In this document: positions 32,007-60,808 of the stretch, in pieces
Position numbering within the stretch: position 1 is the first letter of the stretch
Layout of the letters: each line of letters opens with the position of its first letter
NCBI GenBank assembly: GCA_965231775.1
Contig: OZ246888.1
Location: 2,074,947 to 2,138,946 of the forward strand
Reading direction: 5' to 3'
DNA from: Candidatus Binatia bacterium
GTDB lineage: Bacteria > Desulfobacterota > Binatia > Bin18
Length of the DNA stretch: 64,000 nucleotides
Notes under the pieces: generated by a model
Databases searched by the model: none
Told to the model about the DNA's origin: nothing
Seen by the model: the letters and a program-made list of their open reading frames with translations, nothing else
Program-made: the position numbers and the translations under genes

Positions 32007-32041
32007 TTTTCTTTCTCCCTAAGAACCCGCAGGGGGTTCGT

Positions 32042-33741: not shown

Positions 33742-36700
33742 TCACCCCGCACCAGCCTGCTCATACGCAAGCCCGAACACCGTATCGGTCAGCCAGCGCT
33801 TGAAGCTCTGGTTGTCCATGAACTGCTTGAACAGCTCGGTGTCGTCCTTCATCACCGAGGTCATCACCCGGAGCAGCGCCTTGTCGTGTTCGATACGGGC
33901 GTTCTCCCGGTCCGAGTTCTGCTGAGCGTTCTTGAAGGCCGTGTCCTCGGCCACCCTGGCAGGAATGGTCTGGGTAATGAGCTGCCGCACACGGTCGGCA
34001 TCGTCCCAGTCGATATCGCCGAAGAGATCGTTGAAGGCCCGCAGGATATTCGACAGCCGGTCCAACTCCGGCTCGGGCAGGTGGCCGCCGCCTATGGTCG
34101 GCACAGGTTCGATCTCGGCATCCTCGTCGGGTAGCATGATTTTCTGTATGGCCTGCTTCTCGGCCCGATAGCTGTCCATGTCGATGGCGTCGAGAATGCC
34201 CTTGGACAGGTCCTCCTCTTGGGGGGAGGGTAGCTTGGAGACCAGGAAATTCAGGAATATCGAGCGTTTCTCCCAGTCCGCGTTGGTATAGGGCAGGACC
34301 GACGACAGGAAGCCGTAGGTCCGCACAAAGCCCTTGGCCTTGCCCTTGAAGTCCACCTGGCCGTCTTCGTCCAAATCGCCCAGATAGACTGCCACGCAGG
34401 CATCGAGGATGGGGTCGAGCTGGTCACGTTCGGCTCCGCTAAGATAACGTGACACAAAGGCGTCGATCTGCTCGGAAGAATAGACCTGAGCGCCGTCAAG
34501 ATCAGCCTGCAAATCGTGCAGCTTGTTGGGGTCGGTCTCATCGGCCAGAATCGTCGCCCGATAGAAGCCGGCAAAGGACTCACAGATAATTGCGGTCTTG
34601 TTCAGAAAATCCAGCACGAAGACATCGTGCTTCTTGGGATGCGCCCGGTTGAGGCGCGACAGGGTCTGCACCGCCTTAACGCCCGCGAGCGTCTTGTCCA
34701 CATACATCGTGTGCAGCAGGGGCTCGTCATAGCCGGTCTGGAACTTGTCCGCACAGATCAGGAAACGGTAGGGGTCCTCTTGTATCTTCTCGGCGATCTT
34801 GCCGGACGGAAAACCGTTGAGCGACGCCTCGCTGACCTTGACTCCGCCGAACTCGGGCTCACCGGAGAACGCCACTATGGCCTGGTAACGGCTCTTGCGT
34901 TCTTTCAGGTAGTCGCGGATGGCGTGAAAGTACTGGATAGCGCGCTCAATACCGTTGGTGACGACCATGGCCCGTGCCTGGCCGCCGATCTTGTTCTGGG
35001 CCAGCACCTGCTCGTGAAAATGATCGACCATGATCTCGGCCTTGAGACGAATGGCATGGTCATGGCCCTCGACAAAGCGCCGCAGCTTCTTCTGGGCTTT
35101 CTTCGTATCGAACTGCGGGTCGTCTTCTACCGTCTTGGCCAGCTTGTAATAGCTGCTCACCGGCGTGTAGTGGGCCAGCACGTCCAGGATAAAGCCCTCC
35201 TGGATGGCCTGCTTCATGGTGTAGGTGTGAAAGGCGTGATGCTTGACCGTGCCGTCGGCCTGCGGGTCCGGGTTGCCGAAGATTTCCAGGGTCTTGTTCT
35301 TGGGCGTGGCCGTAAAGGCGAAGTAGCTGGCGTTGGGGAGCAGCTTGCGCGACTCCATCAAACGGTTGATCTGGTCCTCATAGGTCTCCTCTTCGCCCTC
35401 CTCACCGGCCCGGGACAGCGCCTGCGCCATGGCCGCGCTGGTGCGGCCGCCCTGGCTGGAGTGGGCCTCGTCGATGATAATGGCGAAGCGCCGCCCGCGC
35501 TGCTCGTCGCCGATCTCGTCGAGGATGAAGGGAAACTTCTGCACGGTCGAGATGATGATCTTCTTGCCGGACTCGATGAAGCGGCGCAGGTCGCCCGAAC
35601 GCTCGGCATGCCCGAGTGTCGCGCCGACCTGGGCGTACTGTTTGATGGTATCGCGAATCTGCTTGTCGAGAATCCGCCGGTCGGTGACCACGATGATCGA
35701 GTCGAAGACCGGGCTATCGTCTTTTGCCAGCCCGATCAGTTGATGCGCCAGCCAGGCAATGGAGTTGCTCTTGCCGCTGCCCGCCGAGTGCTGGATTAAA
35801 TAGCGCCGGCCCACGCCACGCGTCCCGGCGTCGGCTAGCAGCCGGCGCACCACGTCGAGCTGGTGGTAGCGCGGCCAGACCTGGGTCTTTTTCTTCCTGC
35901 CCGTCTTCTCGTCCCTGGACTCTACCACTTGGGCATAATTCTCCAGAATGTTGGTCAGGCTCTGGCGGGTCAGCACCTCACGCCACAGGTAGTCGGTCTT
36001 GAGCCCGTTCGGGTTGGGTGGGTTGCCCGCGCCGTCGTTCCAGCCCCGGTTGAAGGGTAGAAACCACGAGGACTTGCCCTGGGGGTGGGTGCAGAAGCGC
36101 GCTGCGCTCTCGTCCACGGCGAAGTGGGCCACGCAGCGCCCGAGTGCAAACAGCTTCTCGCGCGGGTTGCGGTCTTTTTTGTACTGCCAGACCGCGTCGT
36201 CCACGGTCTGCTTGGTCAGGCTGTTCTTGAGTTCAAAGGTAAAGACCGGCAGGCCGTTGATGAACAGCCCGATATCCAGCGCCCGCTGGGTTTCGTCGCG
36301 GCTGTAGCGTAGCTGGCGGGTAACGGTGAAGCGGTTCTGCTCGAAGCGTTCCTTCGCCTTCTGGTTGCCGGCTGAAGGCGTGCCGTAGAACAGGGCCAGG
36401 TGGTGCGACCCGTGGTCGAGGCCGTGGCGCAGCACGTCGATGCTGCCGCGCTTGGCAATCTCGCCCTGGAGCCGGGCCAGGAATTTACGCCGTGTGGGGC
36501 CGTCCTCGGACAGCCCCAGCGATGCCGCGGCCTTGGGTTGGGTGGCACGCAGGAAGGCCGAGAGCTGGACCAGATCGACGCAGTATTCCCGGTCGTAGTC
36601 GTGGAAGTTGCCGCCGCTCCAGCCCACACCGCCGTAGCCGGCGGGTGGTTCGGCCACTGTGCCCGTGGCGGGCGGCTCGCAGGGATGGCCGGCCAGCGCG

Positions 36701-36747
36701 GTGCAGATGAGGCGTTCGAGACCGCGTTCGGAGGTGTCGGTGGGCAT
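33742..36747 (-). CDS. hsdR: Type I restriction enzyme R subunit.
   Basis: 1001 aa with SF2 helicase motifs (QHSAGSGKSNSIAW, IIIDEAHSSQG) and N-terminal nuclease-domain similarity. Confidence 0.9.
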   Translation of the reverse strand: MPTDTSERGLERLICTALAGHPCEPPATGTVAEPPAGYGGVGWSGGNFHDYDREYCVDLVQLSAFLRATQPKAAASLGLSEDGPTRRKFLARLQGEIAKRGSIDVLRHGLDHGSHHLALFYGTPSAGNQKAKERFEQNRFTVTRQLRYSRDETQRALDIGLFINGLPVFTFELKNSLTKQTVDDAVWQYKKDRNPREKLFALGRCVAHFAVDESAARFCTHPQGKSSWFLPFNRGWNDGAGNPPNPNGLKTDYLWREVLTRQSLTNILENYAQVVESRDEKTGRKKKTQVWPRYHQLDVVRRLLADAGTRGVGRRYLIQHSAGSGKSNSIAWLAHQLIGLAKDDSPVFDSIIVVTDRRILDKQIRDTIKQYAQVGATLGHAERSGDLRRFIESGKKIIISTVQKFPFILDEIGDEQRGRRFAIIIDEAHSSQGGRTSAAMAQALSRAGEEGEEETYEDQINRLMESRKLLPNASYFAFTATPKNKTLEIFGNPDPQADGTVKHHAFHTYTMKQAIQEGFILDVLAHYTPVSSYYKLAKTVEDDPQFDTKKAQKKLRRFVEGHDHAIRLKAEIMVDHFHEQVLAQNKIGGQARAMVVTNGIERAIQYFHAIRDYLKERKSRYQAIVAFSGEPEFGGVKVSEASLNGFPSGKIAEKIQEDPYRFLICADKFQTGYDEPLLHTMYVDKTLAGVKAVQTLSRLNRAHPKKHDVFVLDFLNKTAIICESFAGFYRATILADETDPNKLHDLQADLDGAQVYSSEQIDAFVSRYLSGAERDQLDPILDACVAVYLGDLDEDGQVDFKGKAKGFVRTYGFLSSVLPYTNADWEKRSIFLNFLVSKLPSPQEEDLSKGILDAIDMDSYRAEKQAIQKIMLPDEDAEIEPVPTIGGGHLPEPELDRLSNILRAFNDLFGDIDWDDADRVRQLITQTIPARVAEDTAFKNAQQNSDRENARIEHDKALLRVMTSVMKDDTELFKQFMDNQSFKRWLTDTVFGLAYEQAGAG

Positions 36748-37326: not shown

Positions 37327-38469
37327 CTACAATCCGAGTGTCTGCGCAAATTGGTCGAAACTCCGGCCATGCAGACCCGTGAGGCGATACGCGTCACGGT
37401 ACAGTAGCCGGCCCTCCCGCGCTGCACGAATGACCGCGCTACCGAAGCGACGGCCGACACGTCCCCGTTGCGCGTTGTAGAAATTCCCCCCACTCGATTG
37501 CTGCGCAGATCTTCGCCGTTCGTCAGCCTTGTATCGATCCAGGAATCCGTAGAAATCGTCTCCCGCCATCAACTCTCGATCCAACACTCGCCGGGCCGCT
37601 ACGAGGGGGCTGACCTTGAAGCGCCTCGCCAGCGCTTGAAACGGTTCGGCCGACTCGGCCACGCTCGGCCAGCAGCCATCAAGCTCGTCTCCCGGAATCA
37701 GTACTTCCGCCGCAACCTCGTTACAAAATCTTTCAACATCATCGTCGTAGGGCTGGAGGTTCACCAAGTTGAACACACCGCCTGTCCCCAACCACAGGTG
37801 GGCCAGTTCGTGCGCCAGGGTAAACATCTGAGCAGACGTGAAGTCCGCTCCGTTGATGAAGATTAAAGGCGCGTAATCGTCGCAGAGCACAAATCCCCGA
37901 AATTCCTCCGGGTCCAGTTTCTGTCGCGTATTGTTCTCCACGACGCCGTTGACGACGACCAAAACACCTATCTCTTCCACCGCCTGCCGAAGCCCAACGA
38001 GCGCGGCGGACCATGTAGGGTGCGTGCTCGCCCAGCCATCATCGACACCGAGTGTCCTTCGGATATTGTTGGCCGCGTCCACGCGACTCGAAGCCAACGT
38101 GACAGTCCCGACGAAGGCAAGAGGTTCTTCGCCTACCTCGATAAGATATTCGCGCATCCACTCTTGCCGCCGCTGCATTTGCCGCACAGTGGTTATCAGT
38201 GCCGCGCTCGGCCGCGCCGGCTGCTGGCCTTTGAGGGTGCGAAAATCAGCAACCGGTAATTTCTCATCCGGCGGCTCCTCTAAAAGCAAGGCTCCGAAGG
38301 GTGTGAGCGTCGCCTTTGCAAACCGCTCCAATTGCTTAAACGTCGGCTGCGCCTCACCGCCTTCCCACTGTGGCAGCTTCGGGAAGCGCTTCGCCAAGTC
38401 AGACATGTCCTTTCCCGAGCGCTCGCGCGCCCAGCGAACCACTGCGGGGTTCACCGCGACCTTGTTCAT
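37327..38469 (-). CDS. HTH (XRE-like) + ImmA/IrrE family metallopeptidase (DUF955).
   Basis: HELAHLWLG is the HExxH zinc peptidase motif, and the N-terminus is HTH-like. The start is chosen at MNKVAVNP; the track begins at 38511. Confidence 0.75.
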   Translation of the reverse strand: MNKVAVNPAVVRWARERSGKDMSDLAKRFPKLPQWEGGEAQPTFKQLERFAKATLTPFGALLLEEPPDEKLPVADFRTLKGQQPARPSAALITTVRQMQRRQEWMREYLIEVGEEPLAFVGTVTLASSRVDAANNIRRTLGVDDGWASTHPTWSAALVGLRQAVEEIGVLVVVNGVVENNTRQKLDPEEFRGFVLCDDYAPLIFINGADFTSAQMFTLAHELAHLWLGTGGVFNLVNLQPYDDDVERFCNEVAAEVLIPGDELDGCWPSVAESAEPFQALARRFKVSPLVAARRVLDRELMAGDDFYGFLDRYKADERRRSAQQSSGGNFYNAQRGRVGRRFGSAVIRAAREGRLLYRDAYRLTGLHGRSFDQFAQTLGL

Positions 38470-38517
38470 ATTGATAACACAGCACCCTGACCGGCTACGG
38501 TCAATCTTCAAAGTCGT

Positions 38518-39903
38518 CTATCGCTCAGCATATGCCGCGTCAATCAGAGCTTTAGCCTTATCAAACTGCTTTGGTTCGGCTTCCCCATCCGGCAACCGTA
38601 CAGCTGCCTCGCGCACGTCGAGCTTGCCGGTGACGACATCGGCGATCAGGCGGGTGCGGTATTCGTGGAGGATAGCTTGCTCTTTGCGGCAATTACCTAT
38701 CGCTATGGCGATCTTGCTCTGTTCCTCATCCAGGACCGCAGCGATTCGGTCCTGTTCGGACACTGGTGGAACCGCGATCAAGAGGGCCTTGATGTCCGCG
38801 ACGTTAATTCGATTGAACGTTGAACCGACAAGGAGCAATGCAAGTTGATCTGACATGACCTTGCTGTGCAGGAAGTAGTTTAGCCATCGCTGGTTCTCGG
38901 AAGAGGACCTGATGAGACATACATCTTGTCCCATCGCGAAACGATCCTCTGTCGTGACAAGGGCAGCGGCCCCAACGCTTACGTTGCGGCAATAGATCAG
39001 GTCTCCAGGCCGAGGCTCCCTTCCTCCTTCGATCAGCTTCTCATACCATTCGGGAGTGGTACGGTTTGATGCTTTGAAGTTTAGCTCGAAGGACTGTGCT
39101 TCCCGTACGCTGGCCAAGGGAATACCACCATCGACGAAAGGCACTGTAAGGTGCTTGCAGTCGATAACCTGCCATTTCCTCCGGAGTGCAACCACCTCCC
39201 AATGCTCCGGCACCTCCCCCAGCCACTCCACGCCGGAGGGCTTGTAGACCGGGTAGGGCTGGCCGGTGCGGATGTCGATCTGGCCGGTGACGGCTTGGTG
39301 GATGAGGGCCTGCTTCTGCTCTTCCAGCAGCGCAATCAGCTTCTCCTTGGCGTGGATGTAGCACCGGATGCGCCGGTCGGCGTGGTCGAGGAAGCGGGCG
39401 ATGGCGGTTTGTTCGGAGAGGGGCGGGACACCCAGCTCTATATTCCTAACCTGCTTTGATGAGAGATGTTTGACGGTCGTAGAGTGTGCAAGGTCCCCAA
39501 TGATCTTTAATGGTAGTTCAACAGCGCGGACAATAAACCCTGCGCGGGAGGAATTTTTCGCTCGGAGACAACACATCCTCTGATTTAGCAAGGCGGCCGG
39601 TCCCCGCCATCGCGCAACGTTGAACAATCCGTCCATCCCCACGATGATATCACCCGTTTCAATCAGAGCCTCTTCAACGATGGCACCACCGTAATTCACC
39701 TCTGTCTTGATAGCGTGCAAATCGCGAATCCGAATAAGCGGTGTTCCTTCTCCCTTCACAAAGTACTGCGAGTCAAAGGGATAGCCGTTGACTACTGTGG
39801 CAATGCTGGACAAACGAGACACCTCCCAATGTGCCGGCACCTCTCCCAGCCACGGCACACCGGAATCCTTGTAGGCAGGGTAGGGTTTCAGTTCGGCGGC
39901 CAT
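38518..39903 (-). CDS. hsdS: Type I restriction-modification specificity subunit (two target-recognition domains).
   Basis: Duplicated architecture with a repeated WLGEVPxHWEV...L and the central and C-terminal conserved helices of HsdS. 461 aa. Confidence 0.85.
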   Translation of the reverse strand: MAAELKPYPAYKDSGVPWLGEVPAHWEVSRLSSIATVVNGYPFDSQYFVKGEGTPLIRIRDLHAIKTEVNYGGAIVEEALIETGDIIVGMDGLFNVARWRGPAALLNQRMCCLRAKNSSRAGFIVRAVELPLKIIGDLAHSTTVKHLSSKQVRNIELGVPPLSEQTAIARFLDHADRRIRCYIHAKEKLIALLEEQKQALIHQAVTGQIDIRTGQPYPVYKPSGVEWLGEVPEHWEVVALRRKWQVIDCKHLTVPFVDGGIPLASVREAQSFELNFKASNRTTPEWYEKLIEGGREPRPGDLIYCRNVSVGAAALVTTEDRFAMGQDVCLIRSSSENQRWLNYFLHSKVMSDQLALLLVGSTFNRINVADIKALLIAVPPVSEQDRIAAVLDEEQSKIAIAIGNCRKEQAILHEYRTRLIADVVTGKLDVREAAVRLPDGEAEPKQFDKAKALIDAAYAER

Positions 39904-40235: not shown

Positions 40236-42221
40236 TCATGACTTGCTGTTACCCCCGATGATCTCGTCCAACAACCCCTCCGTCTCTTGCTCCAGTGACA
40301 GAATATCCGCCCGGATGTCCGCTAGCGTCCGCAGGGGCTGCGGCTTGTAGAAGTAGCGGGTGAAGCTGATCTCGTAGCCGACCTTCACGTTGTCGGGCTG
40401 ATACCAGGCGTCAGAGGCGTAGGGCAGGACCTCGCGCTGTAGGAAGGCTTCGATCCCGCCCGCCTCTTGCAATGGAATCTGCTCGGTGTCGCGCAGGTCG
40501 GTGTCGGGCTCGTACTCCACCACGGCGGGTTTGCCGTTGATGGTGGTGGCGAACAGGCCACGTAACGAGTCAGCTTCCGTGCCTTTCTTGTGAAATTTCT
40601 TGATGACGGGTGGCGCGTCCTCGCTGCGCTCGCCGTTTTCTTTGAGCTTCTTGATCTCGGCAGCCTTGTAGGCGCGATTGGGGTCAGTGCCTTGGATACG
40701 CAGCGGTCGCTCGACCGTGACCTTCCAATAGCCGAAGGCGGCGTTGTCGAATATTTTGCTCTGCTGGCTCTCCTTGAAGTCAAGAAAGGTGTCGCAGATA
40801 CGAGCGATGTCTTCCTCTGACAGCTCACAGTTCTTCTTGCCCAGGTTCTTGCGCAAAGGCCGGTACCAGGTAGTAGCGTCGATCAACTGCACCTTGCCCC
40901 GGCGATGCGCGGGCTTGCGGTTGGTCAGCACCCAGACGTAGGTGGCGATGCCGGTGTTGTAGAACATATTGAGGGGCAGAGCGACGATGGCCTCCAGCCA
41001 GTCGTTCTCGATAATCCAGCGGCGGATATTGCTCTCGCCCTGCCCGGCGTCGCCGGTGAACAGCGAGCTACCGTTGTGCACCTCGGCGATGCGGCTGCCG
41101 AGCGGGGTGTCCTGCTTCATCTTGGAGAGCTTGTTGGCGAGAAAAAGCATCTGACCGTCGCTCGAACGGGTGACCAGCGAATACTCGGGGTCGCCGGCAT
41201 GTTCGATCACGAAGCGCGGGTCGCGCATGTCCTGCTTGCCGCCCATGCGCTCCAGGTCGGTCTTCCAGCTCTTGCCGTAGGGCGGGTTGGACAGCATGAA
41301 ATCGAACTCGCGGGCCGGGAAGGCATCGTTGGCCAGGGTGGAGTGTTCCGGGCCGCCCACGATGTTGTCGGCGGCTTCTCCCTCACCCTTGAGCAAGAGG
41401 TCGGCGGTGCAGATGGCGTAGGTCTCGGCGTTGATCTCCTGGCCGTAGAGATGGGTGGATACGTCCTTGTCGTACTCGGCGGCGAGTTGCCGCAGGGTGT
41501 CTTCGGCCACGGTCAGCATGCCGCCGGTGCCGTAAGCGCCGTCATAGAGCAGATAGGTGCCGGATTTGATTGCGTCGGCAATGGGTAGGAAAACGAGCCT
41601 GGCCATGAGGGTTACGGCGTCGCGCGGGGTCCAGTGTTCGCCGGCCTCCTCGTTGTTCTCCTCGTTGAAGCGGCGCACCAGCTCCTCGAAGATCGAACCC
41701 ATGCCGTGGTTGTCGAGGCCGGGGTGTTTGACCGAGCCGTCGGTGTTGAGGACCGGGGCTGGGCTCAGGTTGATATCGGGCGAGGTGAGCTTCTCGATCA
41801 GCGTGCCCAGGGCGTCGGCTTTGGACAGGCGCGTAATCTGGTTGCGAAACTCGAAGTTGTCGAGGATGTCCTGCACGTTGGGCGAGAACCCATTGAGGTA
41901 GTCTTCAAAGTCTGCCGTCAACTGCTGGCGATTGGCGCGGGCTCTGAGGTCGCGCAGGGTGAACTTGGAGGTGTTGTAGAACGCCTGGCCCGCGGCCTGG
42001 CGCAGGGCCGGGTCCTGTTCGACCACGCCCGCCGTATCGAGGCTGGCCCGCATGTCCAGGACGGCCTGCTTGCTGTCTTCCAGGACCGCATCCAGCCGGC
42101 GCAGTACGGTCATGGGCAGGATCACGTCGCGATACTTGCCACGCACGTACAGGTCGCGCAGCACGTCGTCGGCAATGCCCCAGATGTAGTTGGCAATCCA
42201 GTTCAGGTCGGTGGTGCTCAT
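40236..42221 (-). CDS. hsdM: Type I restriction-modification DNA methyltransferase (N6-adenine).
   Basis: FMLSNPPYGKSWK is the NPPY catalytic motif, and the N-terminal HsdM domain begins MSTTDLNWIANYIWGIADDVLR. The start is chosen at 42221; the track extends to 42431. Confidence 0.9.
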   Translation of the reverse strand: MSTTDLNWIANYIWGIADDVLRDLYVRGKYRDVILPMTVLRRLDAVLEDSKQAVLDMRASLDTAGVVEQDPALRQAAGQAFYNTSKFTLRDLRARANRQQLTADFEDYLNGFSPNVQDILDNFEFRNQITRLSKADALGTLIEKLTSPDINLSPAPVLNTDGSVKHPGLDNHGMGSIFEELVRRFNEENNEEAGEHWTPRDAVTLMARLVFLPIADAIKSGTYLLYDGAYGTGGMLTVAEDTLRQLAAEYDKDVSTHLYGQEINAETYAICTADLLLKGEGEAADNIVGGPEHSTLANDAFPAREFDFMLSNPPYGKSWKTDLERMGGKQDMRDPRFVIEHAGDPEYSLVTRSSDGQMLFLANKLSKMKQDTPLGSRIAEVHNGSSLFTGDAGQGESNIRRWIIENDWLEAIVALPLNMFYNTGIATYVWVLTNRKPAHRRGKVQLIDATTWYRPLRKNLGKKNCELSEEDIARICDTFLDFKESQQSKIFDNAAFGYWKVTVERPLRIQGTDPNRAYKAAEIKKLKENGERSEDAPPVIKKFHKKGTEADSLRGLFATTINGKPAVVEYEPDTDLRDTEQIPLQEAGGIEAFLQREVLPYASDAWYQPDNVKVGYEISFTRYFYKPQPLRTLADIRADILSLEQETEGLLDEIIGGNSKS

Positions 42222-42374
42222 CTTTTTGCGTATCCCTGAGGGGCCTGTAGCGGATATCACACGGAACGCAGGACACAACACTCCGGGCGTGTACCGAAGG
42301 GCAGAGGCGAGGCAGGGGCCTACGGAACAGAGGAGAGCCTTACGGATCGCGGGGCAGGCGTCAATCCCTGCTCT

Positions 42375-42540
42375 TATGTGGGTGTCGGCGAACCCACTCA
42401 TGCCGATGCCATCCTCGACCGGTTGGTGCACAACGCCTATCGCATCGAGCTGAGGGGCGAATCGATGCGAAAAATCAACGCCGGGAGAGGTAGACGACTC
42501 AAGGCCAAGGTTTTACTGTACGAAGGCTATGAGGGAGAAT
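42375..42540 (+). mobile_element. IS21-family istB C-terminal remnant (pseudogene fragment).
   Basis: Frame translation ...[43 protein letters not shown]...* matches the conserved IstB C-terminus (AILDRL..H....I.L.GeSyR). No N-terminal ATPase part or istA is present. Confidence 0.55.
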
Positions 42541-42544: not shown

Positions 42545-44083
42545 ATGAGTTCCGATAAAACCGGCGGCTCCGTAGGCGCGCCGACAGACAGCGAACTGCG
42601 CGCGGCCGCGCAGGCTTTATTTCTCGATCTGGATCGGGGCGACGTGGATTTCTTCGCAACCGCGATGGGCAAGTTCGTCGACGACTACAATGCCATCGAC
42701 GCCATGGACGCGCCGACCCTGCCGACGAAATATCCGCGCGGTGAGGGTTATCGCCCGACCGGCGATGAGAACCGTTACGGTGCCTGGCAGTGGAAGTGTT
42801 CGATCAAGGGCGCGGCGTCCGGCAAGCTCGTCGGCAAACGCGTCGCCATCAAGGACAACATCAGCGTTGCGGGCATGCCTATGCTGAACGGCTCGGCGCT
42901 GTATGAAGGCTTTATCGCCGACGAAGATGCGACCGTCGTGACCCGCGTGCTCGATGCCGGCGGCGAAGTGGTCGGCAAGGCCGTGTGCGAAAACTTCTGC
43001 TATTCCGGCGGCAGCCATACGTCGGCTTCGGGTCCGGTGAGGAACCCGCGCGACCCCGACTTCATGACCGGCGGCTCGTCGAGCGGCTGTGCCGCATTGA
43101 TTCTGACGGGTGAATGCGACATGGCGATCGGCAGCGACCAGGGCGGCTCCGTACGCATGCCGAGCTCGTGGTCTGGCTGCGTCGGGATCAAGCCGACTCA
43201 CGGCCTCGTGCCCTATACCGGCGCCGGACCCATCGAGCACACTATCGATCACCTCGGGCCGATGGCTGCCTCGAGCGTCGATTGCGCCCTGTTACTCGAG
43301 GTAATCGCGGGCTACGACGATGGCCTCGACCCGCGCCAGGTGGCGGCATTGCCGGCAAAACCCTATAGCGAACTCGTCGGCCGGGGGATTGAGGGGCTGC
43401 GGATCGGTATCGTTCGCGAAGGCTTCGGCGCGCCGGGCTCGGAAGCGGACGTGGATGAATCCGTGCTGGCCGCGGCCCGGCGGCTGCAGGAAGCCGGTGC
43501 CGTGGTCGCAGAAATCTCCATCCCCATGCACACCGAGGCATTGAAGATCATGTTCGCAGGTTCTGTCGACGGGACGCTGTCAACGTGGAGCGATCAGGGT
43601 CCGGCGGGCGGAAACGCAGATGGCCACCACCCACTCGGAGCGATCCGCTTCTTTCAGGAGGCGCGCAAAACCCGGGCGGCGGAACTGCCGGACATGGCCA
43701 AGACCGTGCTGTTGTTCGCGCAGGTCATGCGCGCACGGTACGGCAACTATTATTCCGCCAAGGCCCAAAACCTCGTCCGCACGCTCCGTGCCGCCTACGA
43801 TCTCGCGTTTGATAAATGCGACCTGCTGGTGATGCCGACGACCGTGATGAAAGCACACCGGATCCCACCACCGGACGCATCCCGTGAAGTCGTCATGGGG
43901 CTCACGCTCGACATGATCGGCAACACCGCGCCCTTCGATGCGACGAGCCATCCGTCGATGAGCGTGCCGACTGGTCTGTCGAACGGCCTGCCCGTCGGCA
44001 TGATGATCACAGGACGCTACGGTGAGGACGATGTCGTGCTGCGCGCCGGGCATGCGTTCGAGACGTTGCGTGGACCGTTTTGA
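42545..44083 (+). CDS. Amidase-signature family amidase.
   Basis: GGSSSGCAALI (GGSS[SG]G) and KDNISVAGMP. RBS GAGGGAG precedes the start. 512 aa. Confidence 0.85.
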   Translation: MSSDKTGGSVGAPTDSELRAAAQALFLDLDRGDVDFFATAMGKFVDDYNAIDAMDAPTLPTKYPRGEGYRPTGDENRYGAWQWKCSIKGAASGKLVGKRVAIKDNISVAGMPMLNGSALYEGFIADEDATVVTRVLDAGGEVVGKAVCENFCYSGGSHTSASGPVRNPRDPDFMTGGSSSGCAALILTGECDMAIGSDQGGSVRMPSSWSGCVGIKPTHGLVPYTGAGPIEHTIDHLGPMAASSVDCALLLEVIAGYDDGLDPRQVAALPAKPYSELVGRGIEGLRIGIVREGFGAPGSEADVDESVLAAARRLQEAGAVVAEISIPMHTEALKIMFAGSVDGTLSTWSDQGPAGGNADGHHPLGAIRFFQEARKTRAAELPDMAKTVLLFAQVMRARYGNYYSAKAQNLVRTLRAAYDLAFDKCDLLVMPTTVMKAHRIPPPDASREVVMGLTLDMIGNTAPFDATSHPSMSVPTGLSNGLPVGMMITGRYGEDDVVLRAGHAFETLRGPF

Positions 44084-44216
44084 GCGCTCGCGGAACGCTG
44101 CCGACGGATCAGCCTTGCCGCATCGGCGCCGGGCGGCCACCAGGAAGAGACCCGTTAATGACGGGTTTGCAGAACTCCGACATTCATAGTCGCAAGCCTA
44201 ATCATGGGAGAGTGCG

Positions 44217-45920
44217 ATGAGTTCACATAGCGAAATTCACTACGAGGTCGTCTGGCCGAAATCGCCGCTAGCGGTACAGACACGGCATCCCGCCGAGCGG
44301 CTCGATACGCTCGAGGGCAAACGAGTCGGGTTCCTGTGGGATTTCCTGTTTCGCGGTCACGAGCTTTTTCCGGTCATAGAAAAAGAGCTGCAGAACCGTT
44401 TCACCGGGATCGAAATCGTCGGGTACGACGAATTCGGCAACACGCACGGGGGCGATGAAGCCGCGGTGATTGCGGCCCTTCCTAACCGGTTGCGTGACCG
44501 CCGTATCGACGCCGTCGTCTCCGGGGTGGGATGTTGAGGGAGTTGTACGCCCGCCGTGATGCGGGCGTCGGTTGTCGCGGAAGCCGCCGGGGTGCCGTCG
44601 GTGTCGCTGGTCTGTGAAGGTTTCGAACGCCAGGCGTCGGCCACCGGTCGCGGCGCGGGATTCGACGGACTTCCCCTCGGCGTGCTGCGCGGGCACGTGG
44701 ACGCTCAGAGCCACGACGAGATGATCGGCTACCTGCGTGACTCGACACTTGACCAGATCATAGCCGGTCTCACCAGCGCACCGGTCGTCAGTGAGGGCGC
44801 TGCCGCCGAGCCCGCGCCACTGGATGTCGTTGCCACGGGAACGATTGACGATATCAACGAACGTTTCAGCGTTGAGGGGTGGAGCGACGGCCTGCCGGTC
44901 ATTCCGCCGACCCAGGACCGGGTCGCGGCGTTTCTCGCCGCGCTGAACGATAACCCCTGGAGAGTAATCGGCACCGCCCGGCCCTCGGGCCGCGATATCT
45001 CGGTCTGGTCGGTTGCCGTCAATGCCGTCATGACCGGTTGTCAGCCTCGGCACCTGCCCGTGCTCTTGGCGCTCGCCGAAATCATTGCCGATCCCGGTTA
45101 CGGCGTCGAGCACTCGGGCAACACCACCGGGGCCGACGCCCTCGTCATCGTGAATGGGCCGTCGATGGCCGAACTCGGCTTCAACGCCCGGCAGGGGGTA
45201 CTTCGGGAGGGCGCCCACGCGAATACCAGCGTCGCCCGATGGCTCCGGCTGTACCTGCGCAATGTCTGTGGATTCACCGCCGATGAACACGACAAGGCCA
45301 CGTTCGGTAACAGCACCCGGGTGGTATTGGCCGAAGATGAGCAGACGCTGACCGACATCGGCTGGCAACCACTGAGTGCGGAGTTCGGGTTCGGGCGGGG
45401 CGACGACGTGGTCACCATGGCCCGCATGAACAGTGGCCTCATCCTTGGCAGCGTCTTCGGATCGACAGGCGATGCGATTGTGCCGTATCTGGCCGACGGC
45501 CTCGTTCGAGTCAGTGGCTGGGACCTCGCGCACATCTACGGGTTCGGACAGGGCCATTATCGACCGCTGCTGATCCTTTCCCCGATACTGGCGCGCACAT
45601 TCGCCCGATCCGGCTGGAGTAAGGATGACGTCAAGCAGGCGCTGTTCATGAAGGCACGGCTGCCGGCGGCCAGGTTCGAGCAGCTCATCGGCGAGTGGAG
45701 CAACATCGATGCGGGGCGCCGACCCCTGTTCGAACTGGCGACCGAAGGTCTGGTCCCGCCGGTCTTCGGCGAGTCCAACGATCCGCAACGCCTCGTGCCG
45801 ATCGTGACCGAGGCCTCGAAGTTTCTGATCGCCGTTGCAGGCGACCCGAACCGGAACAATGCCTACGTAATGAGTAACGATGGCCCGCACGGTGACTGGA
45901 CGGCCAAGGCCGTACCATGA
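44217..45920 (+). CDS. Fused UGSC-motif selenoprotein domain plus partner domain, with an in-frame TGA (Sec) at 44535-44537.
   Basis: Track ORFs 44217..44537 and 44556..45920 share a frame and are separated by a TGA. Read-through gives ...AVVSGVGC-U-GSCTPAVMRASVVAEAAG...ERFSVEGWSDGLPVIPPTQDRV... An 8-bp hairpin follows 9 nt downstream. The stop overlaps the transporter start. Confidence 0.7.
44547..44568 (+). promoter_or_regulatory. Candidate SECIS hairpin (acgcccgc-CGTGAT-gcgggcgt).
   Basis: Perfect 8-bp stem with a GU-containing loop, 9 nt after the UGA. Confidence 0.5.
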
Positions 45921-48786: not shown

Positions 48787-50028
48787 CTACTCCAACACCT
48801 CGGCAATCACTAACTCGGTGATCTTCTCCTCGTTATAGCCCAGAATATTCTCCAACACGTTCTGATTCTCACGTCCCAGCGTCGGGGCAGAGCGGTTAAT
48901 CTCCGCCGGGGTGCGGGAGAATTTGAAACGGCTGCCTTCGACGGTAGTCTTGCCGAAGTCGGGATGCTCCAGGTCTACAAAGTGCTCACGGTGCTGAAGC
49001 TGCTTGTCCTCGTACAATTCGTTTATGGTTTCGACTGCGCTGGCCGGAACGTTTTTGGCCTGGAGCTTTTCTTCGGCTTCATATGGGTTGAACTGGTTGC
49101 TCCAGGCGTTGATGGCTTTATCGATCTCGTCCTGATTGGCCAGCCGGCCTTTGACGGTGGCAAGACGCTCGTCACTGCCGAGGTCCGGGCGGTTCATGGT
49201 CTCGCACAGCGAGCGCCACTGGTCGTCGGTTTCCACGCCGATCGCTACCCAGCGATCCTCTCCTGCGGACGGATACACCCCGTGCGGGGCGAAGTTCATA
49301 TCCCGGTTGCCCATACGGGTCTGGGTCCGTCCGTTGACGGTTTGATCTAAAAGAAACGGCGCCAGAAAATGGAGGGCGGCTTCGGCCTGCGCCAGGTCAA
49401 TATGCTGGCCTTTGCCAGTCTGGTGCTTGTGTTCCAATGCCGCTAGCACGGCCGCGGCGTTATACCAGGGTGCAATATAGTCGGTGTAGGCACCGAATGG
49501 TCCAGCCGGCTCGCGGTCGGGCCAGCCGGTGGGATCGAAAAATCCTGAGACGGCGGCCGCCAGATTCCCAAACCCGGCGAAGTGAGAATGCGGCCCGGTC
49601 TGGCCCATCAGACAGGTGCTGAGCATGATGATGTCAGGCTTGATTTTTGTGAGCGACTCGTAGTCAAAGCCCCACTCCCGCATGGCTTTGGGAGAAAAGG
49701 ACTCGGTCACCACGTCGGCCCAGCGCACCAGGTCCAAAATGATGTCGCGCGACTCCGGTTTGGACAGATTCAGGGTCATCGGCAGTTTGCCCGTGTTCAT
49801 ATTATTGTACAAACCGGAGTTGTTCGGGCCGGGTTGCTTGTTTTGAAAAGGCCCGACCATGCGCACCGCGTCAAAACGGGTGGTGGATTCAACCCGCACG
49901 ACGGTCGCCCCGTAGTCGGCCAAAATACGCGTCGAGCCAGGGCCGGCCATGGCCCACATGAAATCGAGTACTTTGACCCCAGCCAGGGCTTGATTACTTT
50001 TACTGCCAGTCTGTTGTCCCTCTGCCAT
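48787..50028 (-). CDS. CoA transferase family III (CaiB/BaiF-like).
   Basis: LAGVKVLDFMWAMAGPGSTRILADYGATVVRVE N-terminus. 413 aa. Confidence 0.85.
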   Translation of the reverse strand: MAEGQQTGSKSNQALAGVKVLDFMWAMAGPGSTRILADYGATVVRVESTTRFDAVRMVGPFQNKQPGPNNSGLYNNMNTGKLPMTLNLSKPESRDIILDLVRWADVVTESFSPKAMREWGFDYESLTKIKPDIIMLSTCLMGQTGPHSHFAGFGNLAAAVSGFFDPTGWPDREPAGPFGAYTDYIAPWYNAAAVLAALEHKHQTGKGQHIDLAQAEAALHFLAPFLLDQTVNGRTQTRMGNRDMNFAPHGVYPSAGEDRWVAIGVETDDQWRSLCETMNRPDLGSDERLATVKGRLANQDEIDKAINAWSNQFNPYEAEEKLQAKNVPASAVETINELYEDKQLQHREHFVDLEHPDFGKTTVEGSRFKFSRTPAEINRSAPTLGRENQNVLENILGYNEEKITELVIAEVLE

Positions 50029-50054: not shown

Positions 50055-51296
50055 TCAGATTATCCCTTTGTTTTGCAACTCTGCTAAGGCTTGGGCGTCA
50101 AGGCCGAGTTCGCCATAGACCTCGACATTGTGCTCACCAATCCTCGGCGGACGCCGCTTATAGTCAATCGGCTGCTCGCTGAACTTGGCAAACGGACCGG
50201 GATAAGCAAAGGCTTTGCCCATCTCCTCATGGTCAACCGCAGTCCAGTATTGACGCGACTCCAACTGCTCGCTTTCGACGACCTCGTCAATCGTGGTGAC
50301 CGGGGCGACAAGCAGGCCACGGTCCAGGGCGTTCCGGAACAGCTCTTCTTTGGTTTTGGTCTTGGTGAAATCTTCAACGATCAGTTTGAGGCGTTCATAG
50401 TCTTCAAGCGTTTTCGGGTCGCCACCAAACAGGCCGCCGCCCATATTAACCCAGTCCATCTGTTGGACTTCTTTGTCACAAAACCCCTCTTCATAGATCC
50501 AGTCCATCAGACGCTTGGTGAAATGGGCAAACGCCGAGCCAAACAGATAGGCAATCGAAACATGCCCGTCTTTCGCCGGCCAGAGCAGGCGGATTTCCAA
50601 CGGCCCCATTTTTGCTCCACCGGCCATCCGGCGGGTTTCCGCATCGTTGAGCGGAGCCGAGAGTATGGTTGACTGGGTTGCCTGGGCCGCCGCCTGCTGG
50701 GCGGAAATATCAATATGCTGACCGTGGTTTGAGCGGTGGGATTCGTACAGGGCAATCAGCGCGGCCGGCGCCGCCGCGGCGCTGGCGTGCAGATAGCCCT
50801 GGGGCAGGCTCAGGCGGACCGGCGGGCGGTCTTCGTCGCCGGTAATGACGAGCGGCCCGCTGCTGGCCAGAATAATCAGATCGCTGTCCGCATAGCTGGC
50901 TTTCGGGCCGTCTTGTCCAAAGGGGGTAATCGAGACATAAATCAGCCCCGGATTGTCCGCCGCTAACTCGTCATAGCTCAAGCCGTATTGGGCCAGGCTG
51001 CCGGGATTGTCCGATTCGATCAGAAATTTTGCGTCTCGTGCCAGACGCCGAAGAAGGCCCTGTCCTTCGGATTGCGTGATATCGAGCGTGACCCCCCGTT
51101 TATTGCGGTTATAGGCCCACCAGTAGAGCGAGTTCTCCGCATCTTCTTGATCCTGATAGAAGGGCCCCAGCTTGCGAGCCGAGGAGCCGCCGGGGGGCTC
51201 GATTTTAATCACGTCAGCGCCAAGATCGGCCAGGATTTGGCCACACAGCAGTCCGCGTTCTGTTGTCAGATCAAGAACTCGATAAGGGTTGAGCAT
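50055..51296 (-). CDS. CoA transferase family III (CaiB/BaiF-like), tandem paralog.
   Basis: YRVLDLTTERGLLCGQILADLGADVIKIE N-terminus. 413 aa. Confidence 0.85.
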   Translation of the reverse strand: MLNPYRVLDLTTERGLLCGQILADLGADVIKIEPPGGSSARKLGPFYQDQEDAENSLYWWAYNRNKRGVTLDITQSEGQGLLRRLARDAKFLIESDNPGSLAQYGLSYDELAADNPGLIYVSITPFGQDGPKASYADSDLIILASSGPLVITGDEDRPPVRLSLPQGYLHASAAAAPAALIALYESHRSNHGQHIDISAQQAAAQATQSTILSAPLNDAETRRMAGGAKMGPLEIRLLWPAKDGHVSIAYLFGSAFAHFTKRLMDWIYEEGFCDKEVQQMDWVNMGGGLFGGDPKTLEDYERLKLIVEDFTKTKTKEELFRNALDRGLLVAPVTTIDEVVESEQLESRQYWTAVDHEEMGKAFAYPGPFAKFSEQPIDYKRRPPRIGEHNVEVYGELGLDAQALAELQNKGII

Positions 51297-53726: not shown

Positions 53727-55016
53727 GTGTCCGGTGCTGTTGGGTTCCAAGCGCTGACAAGCCGTAATGCCGTGCTGAGCAGCGCAGAAAATTTCATCCT
53801 GTACCTGCTCATGGAGACCAAGCCGCAGGGTGGGGGCGTGCGCCTGCCGCTCAATCTTGGCATTGTCCTTGACCGTAGCGGTTCCATGTATGACGAACAG
53901 CGGCTTGATCACGTCATCGAGGCCATCAAATATCTGATCGATAATCTTGGTCCGGATGACAAGGCGGCGGTGATCGCGTTTGCCGATCGGGCAGAAGTTG
54001 CGGCAACGGCAGACCGGGTCGCGACTGATGCCGCCGGGGTGAAACGGGCCATTGACGATCTCGATCTCCTGGAGATTGGGGGCGGGACACAAATGGCGCT
54101 GGGCATGGAAGCGGCGCTTACCGAGGTGGAGAAGCATTATTCGCCGAACCGCCTGAACCGGCTGCTGCTCCTGACCGACGGCCAGACGTATGAGGAGCGC
54201 AAATGTCTGGAACTCGCCCGTCAACACCGGGAGCGCATTTCGTGCAGTACGCTTGGGGTGGGGATTGAGTTCAATGAAAAATTACTGATGGAAATGGCCG
54301 AGGAGAGTGGCGCCAATTATCACTTTATCGATACCCCGACCTCCATTCCGAATATTTTTTCCAGTGAACTTCAGGGACTGCGGAACGTCGTCCTGACCAA
54401 CGCGCGTATTGAGATGCAACTCAGCGCCGGGGTGCAGGTGAAAGAAGCCTTTCGCGCCAGTCCTCAGATTTACCCCATAAAAGAGATTACGCCCGACGCT
54501 AACCGGACGCTTTCCCTGTCGTTGGGAGATATTGAAGCCGGAACGCCAAGCTCAGCATTAGCCGTACTCGTCTTGCCGCCCCGCCGACCCGGCCGGGTGC
54601 GGCTGGCGCGAGCCGAGCTATATTACGATACGCCCGAGGCTAAGAACCAGCACGAAAGCGTGGACGTGGTGGTGAATTATACGCTTGAGCGCTCGGAGCT
54701 TGGCCAGGCAAACGGCTATGTGATGAATCTGGTCGATCAAGTCAGTGTCGCCAAGATTCAGATGCAGGCTGAGGCAGCTATGGCTGCCGGCAACACGGAT
54801 AAGGCCACGCGATTATTGGGTAATGCCATAGCCGGCACGCAACGCCTGGGGAATACGAAAGCAACCCAAGCGCTGGAGGGGCTCCAGAGTGAGTTGAAGA
54901 AGACCCAGAGTCTTGCGACCGGGGCTGCCAAGACCCAGTTGCTGAGCGCTCAGGCAACCCTCCGAAAAACGCAGCAGCTTGATCCTGAAAGCGTCAAGGA
55001 TGCGCTCCGGGATTAA
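53727..55016 (+). CDS. VWA domain protein (TerY-like).
   Basis: LDRSGSM MIDAS motif, LLTDGQ, and a coiled C-terminal half. Confidence 0.8.
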   Translation: MSGAVGFQALTSRNAVLSSAENFILYLLMETKPQGGGVRLPLNLGIVLDRSGSMYDEQRLDHVIEAIKYLIDNLGPDDKAAVIAFADRAEVAATADRVATDAAGVKRAIDDLDLLEIGGGTQMALGMEAALTEVEKHYSPNRLNRLLLLTDGQTYEERKCLELARQHRERISCSTLGVGIEFNEKLLMEMAEESGANYHFIDTPTSIPNIFSSELQGLRNVVLTNARIEMQLSAGVQVKEAFRASPQIYPIKEITPDANRTLSLSLGDIEAGTPSSALAVLVLPPRRPGRVRLARAELYYDTPEAKNQHESVDVVVNYTLERSELGQANGYVMNLVDQVSVAKIQMQAEAAMAAGNTDKATRLLGNAIAGTQRLGNTKATQALEGLQSELKKTQSLATGAAKTQLLSAQATLRKTQQLDPESVKDALRD

Positions 55017-55054
55017 GCTCCACCACAGATGCAGCCCATGAAGGAGATGAGAGC

Positions 55055-55708
55055 ATGATTCGCTGTGCGGAATGCAATGAAGAAAATGTGGATGGCCTGG
55101 AGTACTGTGATAGCTGCGGAGCGAAACTCGAAGTGATAGCGACGGAAGCCGCGGCCGCCGATGCTCCCGACAGCCCAGCCGCAGAGGAGGCTCCCGCCGA
55201 AATTGAGGCAAGTACGGAGACCGCGGCAGAAGAAGCCACGTCTGAGCCTGCTGAGACTGAGACCGCTGAAGCTAAAGGCGAGGAGAGTGCGGAGGTGGCT
55301 GGGGATGAGCCCACGGAGACGGCGGTAGAAGAAGCCGTGCCTGAAGCCGCTGCTCTCAGCGAGGAACAGGCGGCGGTCGGTAGCGCTGCGCTCACCATCA
55401 CCCGTGGTGGCACGGTGGGAAAAGTCTTTGAGCTCCAAGCCGGAGACAATCTGGTTGGTCGGTGGGACCCGGATTCCGGTTCTTTTCCTGAAGTCGATAT
55501 GGAAAACGATGATCCGGAAGCGCGCATCTCCCGCAAACACGCGCTGATAAAGTTCGGGACCGAGTTGACGATTGAAGATATCGGGAGTCTGAACGGGACG
55601 TTTGTCAACCGGGGACAACGTCTTGAGCCAGGCTCGCCCGCCCCCCTCAAGGATGGAGACGAGATCATCATAGGCAAAACCTTCTTTAAGGTGTCGCGCG
55701 TGCAATGA
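55055..55708 (+). CDS. Zinc-ribbon + acidic linker + FHA domain protein.
   Basis: N-terminal CAECN...CDSCG. The C-terminal FHA reads GRWDPD...ISRKHALIKF...SLNGTFVN. Confidence 0.8.
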   Translation: MIRCAECNEENVDGLEYCDSCGAKLEVIATEAAAADAPDSPAAEEAPAEIEASTETAAEEATSEPAETETAEAKGEESAEVAGDEPTETAVEEAVPEAAALSEEQAAVGSAALTITRGGTVGKVFELQAGDNLVGRWDPDSGSFPEVDMENDDPEARISRKHALIKFGTELTIEDIGSLNGTFVNRGQRLEPGSPAPLKDGDEIIIGKTFFKVSRVQ

Positions 55709-55767
55709 GGCTGCGCTGGCCGTTCTGGAAGTGGCGAAACTGAGCACCCTGAGTGGACTGGTGATGC

Positions 55768-57474
55768 ATGGCTTCTGCACCGCTGATGACCGAACAGAGA
55801 GACCTTGAGGAGAGCTGTGTTTGTGTCGAGTGCGGACAGGCCAATATCGTCGGCGAAACTTTTTGTACCGCCTGTGGCGTAGCGCTTGAAGAAGCAGGTG
55901 AGAGGGAGTCGGTCCCCCCTCTCGAACCGCTGCCAATCGGCACCGTTCTGGCTGATAGCTATCGTCTGACCACCCTCCTCTCGACTGGACAGGAAAATCG
56001 TTACCGGGCGGTTTGTCAGACTGACGAAGACCGGCCCTACCTCGTAGCGGAACGGTCAAACGACCAGACCGATACCCATCCGAGTGGCGCGTTTCGGTTG
56101 TCCGAACAGCTTGCCGAGATTCATCATCCGGCCCTGATTCTCCCCCAAGAACGTTTTGAACGTGGCGGCCGGGTCTATCTCATGACGCCGAGTCAGTCCG
56201 GTCTCCCGCTGAGTCAGCGCATTGGCCGGACATCGGAGCGGGAGGCGGCCGGCTGGGGAGTCCAGTTATGCCAGGCCGTGGATGTTTTGCACCGGCATGG
56301 ACTCTTATGTGTCGAACTGCCTCCGGAAAATATCCTGCTCGACAAGACGGGCCGGTTGCACCTCACCCAATTCGATGCGATCCGTCTCAGAGACACGGTT
56401 GAGGAGCATCCCGTGTTGACAGACGGCTATGCTGCGCCCGAGGCATACAAGGCCCAGGTATTAAATGAAGCCGCCGATGTGTTTGCACTCGGCGCCTGCC
56501 TGTATGCCGTGCTGGTGGGGCGGCGCTTGCCCGTTGAGGGCTGGGCGGTTCAGCCTGAGCCACCCGTCTTCTATCCTGAGAAAGTTCTGACTCCTGAGTG
56601 TGAGCGCATTTTAAGCAGAGCGTTGGCCCTTGAGCCTACGGAGCGCTATGCGGACTTGGAAGCGCTGAAACATGATCTGCTTGCGCTGAGCCAATCCATG
56701 CATATCCGTTCGGCCTGGCGGACCGATGTCGGACAGGTGCGCGACCATAACGAGGATGCCGTTCTGGTCAAAGAGGTCGGGCAGGGCAGTATAGCCGGCG
56801 ATGATTTTCGGGGGCTGTATATTGTGTCAGACGGGATGGGTGGGGCCGAAGCCGGTGAGGTCGCGAGCCAGATTGCCATCCAGACAGTAGCGCGCCAAGT
56901 CGAAGCAGCCTGGGCCGAGAGTGAGGCGGAAGAGGAAGTGGACGCTGCCGCCTGGGAGAGCTGTTTGCGTGAGGCGGTTGCGGCGGCCAATGCCCGGATA
57001 GTCCAATACGGAAAAGATCACCCCGAGTCGGCCGGCCTAGGGGCCACGATCGTGGCCGCGTTGATCCAGGCGGGACAACTGGCGCTGGCCTGGGTCGGGG
57101 ACAGTCGGGTCTATCTGCTGGAAAACGGAGTGTTGCACCAGCTCTCGCACGATCATTCCCTGGTCGCCCGGCTGGTCGAAATCGGCCAACTGACGGAAGA
57201 AGAGGCATTGACTCACGAGCACCGCAACGTCCTGATTCGGTCCTTGGGCAGCAAGGAAAACGTAAAGGTTGATACGCTCTCGCGACTGCTGAAGCGCGGC
57301 GTCCGCCTCCTCCTGTGCAGCGATGGGCTGACCAGCCATGTGCTTGATCCGGCGATCGCCGATATTATGAGTCGCCACCGGACTCCGCACGAGGCCGCCT
57401 TGGAACTGACTGTCGCGGCCAATACCGCGGGCGGCAGCGATAATACCTCGGTGGTTGTTGTCTTCCACGAGTAG
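55768..57474 (+). CDS. Zinc-ribbon + kinase-like (predicted pseudokinase) + PP2C Ser/Thr phosphatase fusion.
   Basis: CVECGQ...CTACG ribbon. The kinase-like domain has the HRDLKPEN catalytic loop replaced by LLCVELPPEN and the DFG motif replaced by TQFD. The C-terminal PP2C motifs are VSDGMGG, GATIVAA and CSDGL. Confidence 0.8.
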   Translation: MASAPLMTEQRDLEESCVCVECGQANIVGETFCTACGVALEEAGERESVPPLEPLPIGTVLADSYRLTTLLSTGQENRYRAVCQTDEDRPYLVAERSNDQTDTHPSGAFRLSEQLAEIHHPALILPQERFERGGRVYLMTPSQSGLPLSQRIGRTSEREAAGWGVQLCQAVDVLHRHGLLCVELPPENILLDKTGRLHLTQFDAIRLRDTVEEHPVLTDGYAAPEAYKAQVLNEAADVFALGACLYAVLVGRRLPVEGWAVQPEPPVFYPEKVLTPECERILSRALALEPTERYADLEALKHDLLALSQSMHIRSAWRTDVGQVRDHNEDAVLVKEVGQGSIAGDDFRGLYIVSDGMGGAEAGEVASQIAIQTVARQVEAAWAESEAEEEVDAAAWESCLREAVAAANARIVQYGKDHPESAGLGATIVAALIQAGQLALAWVGDSRVYLLENGVLHQLSHDHSLVARLVEIGQLTEEEALTHEHRNVLIRSLGSKENVKVDTLSRLLKRGVRLLLCSDGLTSHVLDPAIADIMSRHRTPHEAALELTVAANTAGGSDNTSVVVVFHE

Positions 57475-57487
57475 CGAGGCATTGTCG

Positions 57488-60786: not shown

Positions 60787-60808
60787 GCAGGCCGGAGAGT
60801 GAGGTCAG

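Follow-up and report, generated by a model that had tools for sequence, protein, structure and literature searches.

Introduction

Proteins with a UGSC motif form a selenoprotein family that has been listed as of unknown function since 2005-2008 and is still so listed in reviews from 2022 and 2026 (PMC1976440, PMC2398784, PMC9312934, PMC13188914). The 2008 survey counts UGSC proteins among the most abundant selenoproteins of aquatic metagenomes, and describes, in reads of the Global Ocean Sampling, a "UGSC/Unknown_1 fusion" whose added domain contains a conserved cysteine (Cys) (PMC2398784). Here, we analyzed a gene of this fused type at 44217-45920 of a 64-kb stretch of contig OZ246888.1 from a Candidatus Binatia bacterium (the window; positions are counted from its first letter). 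The gene links a UGSC domain in frame to a second domain, hereafter the partner domain. Unknown_1 of the 2008 fusion is very probably this same domain.

Our comparison makes it very likely that 44217-45920 (+ strand) is a single gene for a 567-residue selenoprotein, in which the UGA at 44535-44537 would be read as selenocysteine (Sec) 107 under the direction of a hairpin on its 3′ side. A sequence-only reading of the window had proposed such a selenoprotein, and the proposal is supported by the conserved TGA, by frozen synonymous sites, by homologues with Cys in a single open reading frame (ORF), and by selC and selD beside the genes of relatives.

A continuous reading frame across the UGA codon

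The sole in-frame TGA between the ATG at 44217 and the stop at 45918-45920 is the one at 44535-44537, so that translation through it yields the 567 amino acids (aa) foreseen by the sequence-only reading. The local context is VSGVGC-U-GSCTPAVMRAS, in which the expected C-U-G-S-C-T appears as GC-U-GSC-T. The features of the locus are as follows.

44206..44212, + strand: Shine-Dalgarno-like GGGAGAG, 4 nucleotides (nt) ahead of the ATG at 44217, as read from the sequence
44217..45920, + strand: predicted selenoprotein coding sequence in full, 567 codons (Sec107 among them) and the stop; frame kept in 75 full-length reconstructions from other genomes
44247..44771, + strand: UGSC domain, residues 11-185, spanning the UGA; Pfam PF24696, 96.8 bits, E 2.1e-27
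44535..44537, + strand: UGA codon, predicted selenocysteine 107; TGA at the same position in 78 of 81 related loci, Cys in this column of full-length single-ORF homologues
44544..44546, + strand: Cys110, presumed resolving cysteine of U-x-x-C; without exception in alignments A2 and A4, and placed by the model at the N-terminal end of helix 110-123
44547..44568, + strand: hairpin resembling a selenocysteine insertion sequence (SECIS), 8-bp stem and loop CGUGAU, cross-phylum core 44549-44566; supported by pairing and codon conservation
44556..44558, + strand: GTG (Val114), start of the downstream "454-aa gene" according to ORF finders; sits in the putative SECIS loop
44841..45917, + strand: partner domain, residues ~209-567 (~360 aa), homologous to the stand-alone protein at 7698-8780 (E 4e-43)
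45039..45041, + strand: Cys275 in AVNAVMxGC, the sole family-invariant Cys of the partner domain; invariant in alignments A1, A3, and A7, with one exception among the 30 sequences of A2
45918..45920, + strand: genuine stop TGA, overlapping the ATG of the next gene (ATGA)
44268..45890, - strand: 540-aa shadow ORF in antisense, no gene of its own, as judged from third-position G+C content (GC3) and substitution pattern of the + frame

The + frame has a GC3 of 0.76 at 44217-45920, and 44-45 of the 66-67 substitutions that separate it from two 96%-identical relatives fall at its third positions. The long minus-strand ORF is thus a shadow, as the sequence-only reading had held when setting it aside. 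UGA is the ordinary stop of 11 of the 26 Pfam-supported genes in the window, the selenoprotein gene itself included, and the codon is therefore not reassigned in the host. An exact-sequence look-up of the window ORF returned no record.

The UGSC domain exceeds the PF24696 cut-off of 25 bits by a wide margin and covers profile positions 2-170 of 172, and its U107-G-S-C110 motif is invariant in alignments A2 and A4. By contrast with this clear domain match, the NCBIfam equivalog model NF041046 scores 45.8 bits against a cut-off of 125, which places the protein in a divergent fused subfamily rather than among the equivalogs. Such an equivalog is encoded elsewhere in the window: the gene at 7039-7644 (gene 1) is a canonical stand-alone UGSC selenoprotein (NF041046, 140.6 bits) with its TGA at 7324-7326 and a hairpin of its own (GUCGUGG / GGUCU / CCACGAC), and it is followed by a stand-alone partner gene at 7698-8780. 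The fusion is collinear with this split pair, as had been proposed. Similarity to the gene-1 UGSC protein extends over residues 8-157 (25% identity, E 1e-11), and that to ORF 7698-8780 over residues ~209-551 (30% identity, E 4e-43); it is the absence of the latter that the sequence-only reading had named as grounds for giving up the fusion. Near gene 1, a DsbA-like gene in divergent orientation (6337-6942) bears a weak resemblance to the Rcas_1661 thioredoxin-like (seleno)lipoprotein family.

Conservation of the UGA codon in related loci

A scan of species-representative genomes with the fused protein matched at least 600 stretches, 81 loci of which were fetched to compare the TGA. The closest among the matches listed is a Candidatus Binatia metagenome-assembled genome (OZ244620.1, 96% identity); other listed carriers are Acidimicrobiales and other Actinomycetota, Alpha-, Beta-, and Gammaproteobacteria, Methylomirabilota, Nitrospinota, Acidobacteria, and Limnocylindria. 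Across at least seven phyla, 78 of the 81 loci share the TGA in precisely this place, and TAA or TAG never replaces it. In these 78 loci GSCTPA follows the codon and a conserved in-frame ORF of at least 100 residues precedes it; the remaining three are cut by a contig end or frameshifted. One Betaproteobacteria contig (L045) carries two paralogous Sec-type fusions (3659-5398 and 7167-8924), both of which have a TGA and a hairpin of their own and are flanked by genes for TctC binding proteins.

Gene callers split the locus everywhere, which is what would be expected of two separate genes, namely, a 106-aa UGSC fragment ending at UGA 44537 and a second protein starting at GTG 44556 or ATG 44559. 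A search with the read-through protein retrieved 2320 homologues, the best 120 of which are all 452-491 aa long and cover the last 80% of the query, because their annotated starts lie just past the UGA; with the N-terminal 144 residues as the query, all hits were fragments of ~99-135 aa stopping at the UGA. This two-gene arrangement is nonetheless very unlikely. The Pfam UGSC domain crosses the UGA, the peptide most strongly conserved in the family (GSCTPA) comes from the six codons that separate the UGA from the putative start, the putative GTG start lies inside the predicted SECIS loop, and a stop of two genes would not be expected to be always TGA and never TAA or TAG. Moreover, the Cys forms are single ORFs. 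Among 1.84 billion representatives, ~20 full-length homologues (563-626 aa) came up as single ORFs, their matches starting near residue 110-120, and the column of the predicted Sec holds Cys (C-G-x-C) in P0356, P0357, P0372-P0374, P0377, P0383, P0387, P0388, P0396, P0408, P0413, and P0458. The UGSC and partner parts thus make up one polypeptide in these homologues, and the Sec/Cys pairs seen in the alignment are the classical signature of a selenoprotein family. Two of the single-ORF proteins are unusual: P0458, one of the Cys-form fusions, has an N-terminal stretch resembling a signal peptide, and P0370 has lost both redox residues (GGASGA) and retains the partner-domain Cys.

A candidate SECIS hairpin within the coding sequence

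The hairpin described in the sequence-only reading is present as stated. It starts 9 nt after the UGA and consists of a perfect 8-bp stem, ACGCCCGC (44547-44554) and GCGGGCGU (44561-44568), closed by the loop CGUGAU (44555-44560). The loop conforms to CGUGNU, with G-U at positions 2-3, and its first nucleotide lies 17 nt after the UGA. The bSECIS consensus of Zhang and Gladyshev from 2005 reportedly requires the loop to start within 16-37 nt of the UGA. Perfect 8-bp hairpins with loops of 3-10 nt are rare, numbering 19 on the + strand of the window, and only 6 of the 1105 TGA triplets on that strand (0.5%) have one 5-20 nt downstream.

Comparison across loci revealed that the six-pair core (44549-44554 with 44561-44566) is paired in 97.2% of cells over 78 distinct sequences, versus 29-53% in controls in which the 3′ arm was slid by 1-3 columns. 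Five of the six pairs are practically invariant. The outer pair of the core varies between G-C (n = 60), A-U (n = 6), and G-U (n = 1), with 6 double changes where 1.1 are expected, a value reached in none of 500 shuffles. The codons that build stem and loop, those of P112, A113, V114, and R116, have the four lowest codon entropies in 72 sequences (0-0.18 bits), compared with typically ~1-1.9 bits across ~100 other conserved columns of four- or sixfold degenerate amino acids. Their usage is as follows.

P112: CCC in 70 of 72 sequences
A113: GCC in 72 of 72 sequences
V114: GTG in 72 of 72 sequences
R116: CGG in 71 of 72 sequences

Mainly by this synonymous-site invariance, and additionally by the one covarying pair, the alignments indicate that the predicted SECIS hairpin is selected as RNA. 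It resembles the bacterial SECIS of the fdhF type in being a hairpin within the coding sequence soon after the UGA, with 17-nt spacing and G-U in a small apical loop. The E. coli fdhF element has a bulged U, whereas the hairpin described here has none, and its sequence (GCCCGC-CGUGNU-GCGGGC) is family specific; a role in SelB binding is putative. In practical terms, the conserved stretch provides a searchable SECIS signature for the fused subfamily, UGA-N11-ACG-CCC-GCC-GUG-NUG-CGG-GC.

Selenocysteine machinery and the decoding of the UGA

Genes for Sec synthesis accompany the fusion in several relatives. ARAGORN located a tRNA-SeC gene at most 4 kb from the fusion in five loci (L048, 5406-5498; L063, 5401-5493; L071, 2361-2455; L040, 8749-8843; L052, 8911-9003), which make up 5 of the 12 tRNA genes in 84 loci. 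In L048 and L063, this gene lies on the opposite strand and starts 5-6 nt past the fusion stop codon. L048, L058, L074, and L075 have a bona fide selD (NF002098, 491 bits) next to the fusion, and L052 contains part of one.

Several observations weigh against the selenocysteine reading. No selA, selB, selC, or selD was found in the 64-kb window, which was searched for tRNA, in 30 scanned ORFs, and by tblastn with a SelD sequence (the RNA search returned a tmRNA only, and no tRNA-Sec); for the source genome, such machinery is presumed on the example of relatives. Over its 66 nt, the hairpin stretch folds with an energy that is ordinary for G+C-rich DNA (z = -0.1) and unremarkable taken alone, and the real support for the hairpin is therefore comparative. 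In related loci, a lower stem is usually present but has no conserved register, nor does it covary in a fixed register, and no Rfam family matches the hairpin. Finally, Sec insertion, which we judge almost certain for the window gene, is for every member a conclusion from sequence comparison.

With no Sec machinery seen in the window and the decoding deduced from sequence comparison, the UGA might instead be translated as a standard amino acid (Trp, Cys, or Gly), through near-cognate decoding or local recoding. We regard this as slightly less likely still than two separate genes. Such readthrough would leave unexplained the conserved hairpin with its SECIS-like spacing and G-U loop, the alternation of Cys and Sec in a CxxC-type motif of the homologues, and the presence of selC and selD beside the gene in relatives, and UGA is an ordinary stop in the window. 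That the TGA marks a pseudogene, or a sequencing or assembly error interrupting a Cys-type gene, is effectively refuted: errors do occur in the family, as in P0262 (Ser at the Sec position), which is frameshift ridden and was rejected as a true variant in favor of a probable assembly error, but the same TGA recurs in 78 independent assemblies from many phyla, and the third-position bias of substitutions versus relatives is the pattern of purifying selection. Incorporation of Sec at position 107 of one continuous polypeptide is thus the interpretation that we retain.

The partner domain and predicted structures

Every UGSC fusion found here is joined to the same partner domain, which in thousands of other genomes is encoded by a separate adjacent gene. 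Its stand-alone form matches at least 7999 proteins, all named "hypothetical protein," and the domain has 3793 representatives at E<=1e-3 (50% identity clusters). Invariant positions comprise Cys275, the GW(S/T)DGLP...PPT motif, and also Arg, Asn, Asp, Glu, Thr, Gly, His, Ser, and Lys residues. Homologues of 713-1254 aa contain tandem partner domains (~713 aa for partner-partner proteins) and no informative extra domains.

AlphaFold2 (AF2) modeled the 454-aa part after the UGA with a mean predicted local distance difference test score (pLDDT) of 83.8 and a predicted template modeling score (pTM) of 0.86. The full-length Cys homologue P0356, which is 45% identical and has the same motif numbering, gave a pLDDT of 91.4 and a pTM of 0.91, so the two domains have a defined arrangement relative to each other in this model. 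From the same model, we infer a flavodoxin/Rossmann-like alpha/beta fold for the UGSC domain; the thioredoxin-like fold assumed in PMC2398784 was not recovered. U107 would lie in the loop after strand 99-105, with C110 capping the next helix, in the usual redox geometry of CxxC and UxxC motifs. Searching PDB sequences with profiles built from the UGSC and partner alignments gave no matches. Two candidate homologues of the partner domain proposed by Foldseek were rejected, namely, class I fumarate hydratase (best match E 2.6e-3, with a template modeling score of 0.2) and cyclic amide hydrolases (E 0.06-1).

Genomic context

The genes flanking the fusion in the window are these.

42545..44083, + strand: amidase gene upstream, probably in the same operon; PF01425, NF005565 at 656 bits; order the same in the 96% relative L001
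45917..47686, + strand: sodium:solute symporter gene downstream, translationally coupled; PF00474, TIGR00813; order the same in L001

In both the window and L001, the order is amidase, fusion, and Na+/solute symporter (with the ATGA overlap); next come a PIN-domain gene and two family III coenzyme A (CoA)-transferases. The window encodes three paralogues of the latter (21901-23145, 48787-50028, and 50055-51296), the last two on the 3′ side of the selenoprotein operon, and CoA-transferases also stand beside the fusion in eight other loci.

Other neighbors recur more widely. Among 72 loci, 22 contain a TrxB-like flavoprotein with a CAHC motif, whose TIGR01292 score of 240.9 bits remains below the cut-off of 343 and therefore marks a paralogue rather than the housekeeping enzyme. 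A stand-alone partner paralogue is found in 20 loci; the commonest order is fusion, paralogue, and TrxB-like gene, and alternatively the fusion adjoins the TrxB-like gene directly. The frequent succession of fusion, paralogue, and TrxB-like flavoprotein suggests that the fusion is a Sec/Cys redox enzyme. Fifteen loci encode TctC-type binding proteins, which were seen in Proteobacteria. In nine Actinomycetota loci (L004, L006, L010, L011, L016, L022, L082, L084, and L085), the fusion adjoins a gene for an AsnC/Lrp regulator, usually divergent and ~80 nt upstream, a hint of regulation by an amino acid or a metabolite akin to one.

Three further regions of the window were noted in passing. A tmRNA gene (31655-32006) is followed by an AAA_15/AAA_21 ATPase (31853-33058) by the type I restriction-modification genes HsdR (33742-36747), HsdS (38518-39903), and HsdM (40236-42431), and by an IrrE/M78 peptidase (37327-38511). 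The segment 31655-42431, which ends just before the amidase gene, looks like a defense island; since L001 has instead AlpA/HTH_17 and an AAA ATPase upstream of the amidase, this is apparently a variable island at ssrA. The segment 4001-6272 has 43% G+C, versus ~58-60% around it, and holds a 487-aa ORF (4809-6272) lacking a Pfam match; it may be foreign DNA. A signaling cluster at 53727-62374 encodes a VWA protein, a Ser/Thr kinase-PP2C fusion (55768-57474), a second kinase (57455-59863), and a VWA-FHA protein (60809-62374).

Proposed function

The amidase, the Na+/solute symporter, the CoA-transferases, the AsnC/Lrp regulators, and the TctC proteins next to the fusion suggest a small nitrogen- or carboxylate-containing substrate. 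We tentatively propose, with somewhat less than even confidence, that U107/C110 is a redox couple serving the partner domain on a small amide, amino acid, or carboxylate, with recycling through a TrxB-like protein and NAD(P)H in many lineages. The partner domain would be the substrate-binding or catalytic module and would use Cys275 together with other invariant residues. The couple would alternate between the selenol/thiol and selenenyl-sulfide states, passing electrons to the partner domain or resolving an adduct formed there, and in many relatives it would be re-reduced by the dedicated TrxB-like NAD(P)H flavoprotein encoded just downstream. A bolder version, possible but rather doubtful, is that the fused UGSC-partner proteins and their split relatives constitute a very widespread Sec-dependent oxidoreductase system acting on such a substrate, with a catalytic fold absent from the PDB and dedicated TrxB-like recycling, that is, a functional analogue of the clostridial glycine and proline reductases that would operate in aerobic bacteria of soil and water.

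These functional proposals have their own counterweights. Neither Pfam nor NCBIfam has a model that matches the partner domain, even with the threshold relaxed to E<=1, and no PDB relative of it emerged from Foldseek or profile searches. In the window, neither a TrxB-like gene nor a partner paralogue stands beside the fusion, and fusion neighborhoods vary between phyla.

The linkage to sel genes opens another way to read the function, in which the protein would not be a catabolic reductase and would instead handle selenium, for example by reducing it or delivering it to SelD. In L048, L058, L074, and L075, selD is divergent and adjoins the TrxB-like gene and the fusion (it is also present in L052), and tRNA-SeC abuts the fusion in L048 and L063. 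However, selenoprotein genes often cluster with sel genes for regulation, and more than 60 of the 72 loci show no such linkage. The remaining neighbors (transporters, CoA-transferases, amidase, and AsnC/Lrp) point to organic-acid or amide metabolism, and it would be circular for Sec synthesis to rely on an earlier step that itself needs Sec. We therefore consider a role in selenium handling unlikely, and a redox function in small-molecule metabolism remains our working proposal.

Comparison with known systems

A local parallel to the UGSC site is found in selenoprotein B of the GrdB/PrdB type (PF07355, TIGR01917/TIGR01918). Both share a strand ending in D-x-V-V, a U-x-x-C motif, and a helix with Glu at C+12 and Pro at C+17. 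In the alignment U falls on U and C on C, but the similarity is statistically weak: hhalign against PrdB returned a probability of 2% (E 0.024), and the gene-1 UGSC protein matches TIGR01917 positions 342-401 (E 0.0033). Proteins of both families would be re-reduced by a thioredoxin-type system. Nevertheless, the fusion has no TIGR01917/TIGR01918 or PF07355 match at E<=0.01, and a PrdA/GrdE pyruvoyl-type subunit was found neither near the window gene nor in related loci. The hosts differ as well: GrdB/PrdB occurs in amino acid-fermenting anaerobes, whereas the fusion is carried mostly by aerobic soil and water bacteria. The resemblance is thus a lead, with no family membership shown.

With the UGSC family proper (PF24696; NF041046; Zhang and Gladyshev), the protein shares the domain, the U-G-S-C motif, and a putative SECIS just downstream, and it differs in being covalently joined to the partner domain and only 25% identical to gene 1. 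Another parallel is the UGSC/Unknown_1 fusion, which PMC2398784 likewise describes as a UGSC domain joined to a conserved Cys-containing domain. That fusion is known there from short reads, whereas here it is a complete gene in a Binatia genome, with its genomic context. The Candidatus Binatia fusion is a member of a known fused subfamily, which spans at least 600 species-level genomes and is systematically mis-annotated. The finding is correct and not new in kind, because the UGSC family and the fusion were published in 2008. In essentially every database entry the fused subfamily is split into two ORFs, and annotation pipelines miss it because NF041046 does not reach the fused form; the present locus offers a clean, complete example of that form.

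The chief interest is the uncharacterized partner domain together with its conserved redox neighbors. Current understanding is not overturned, and the functional question has become testable: the recurrent neighbors (the TrxB-like flavoprotein, the partner paralogue, selD/selC, and AsnC/Lrp) give biochemistry its handles.

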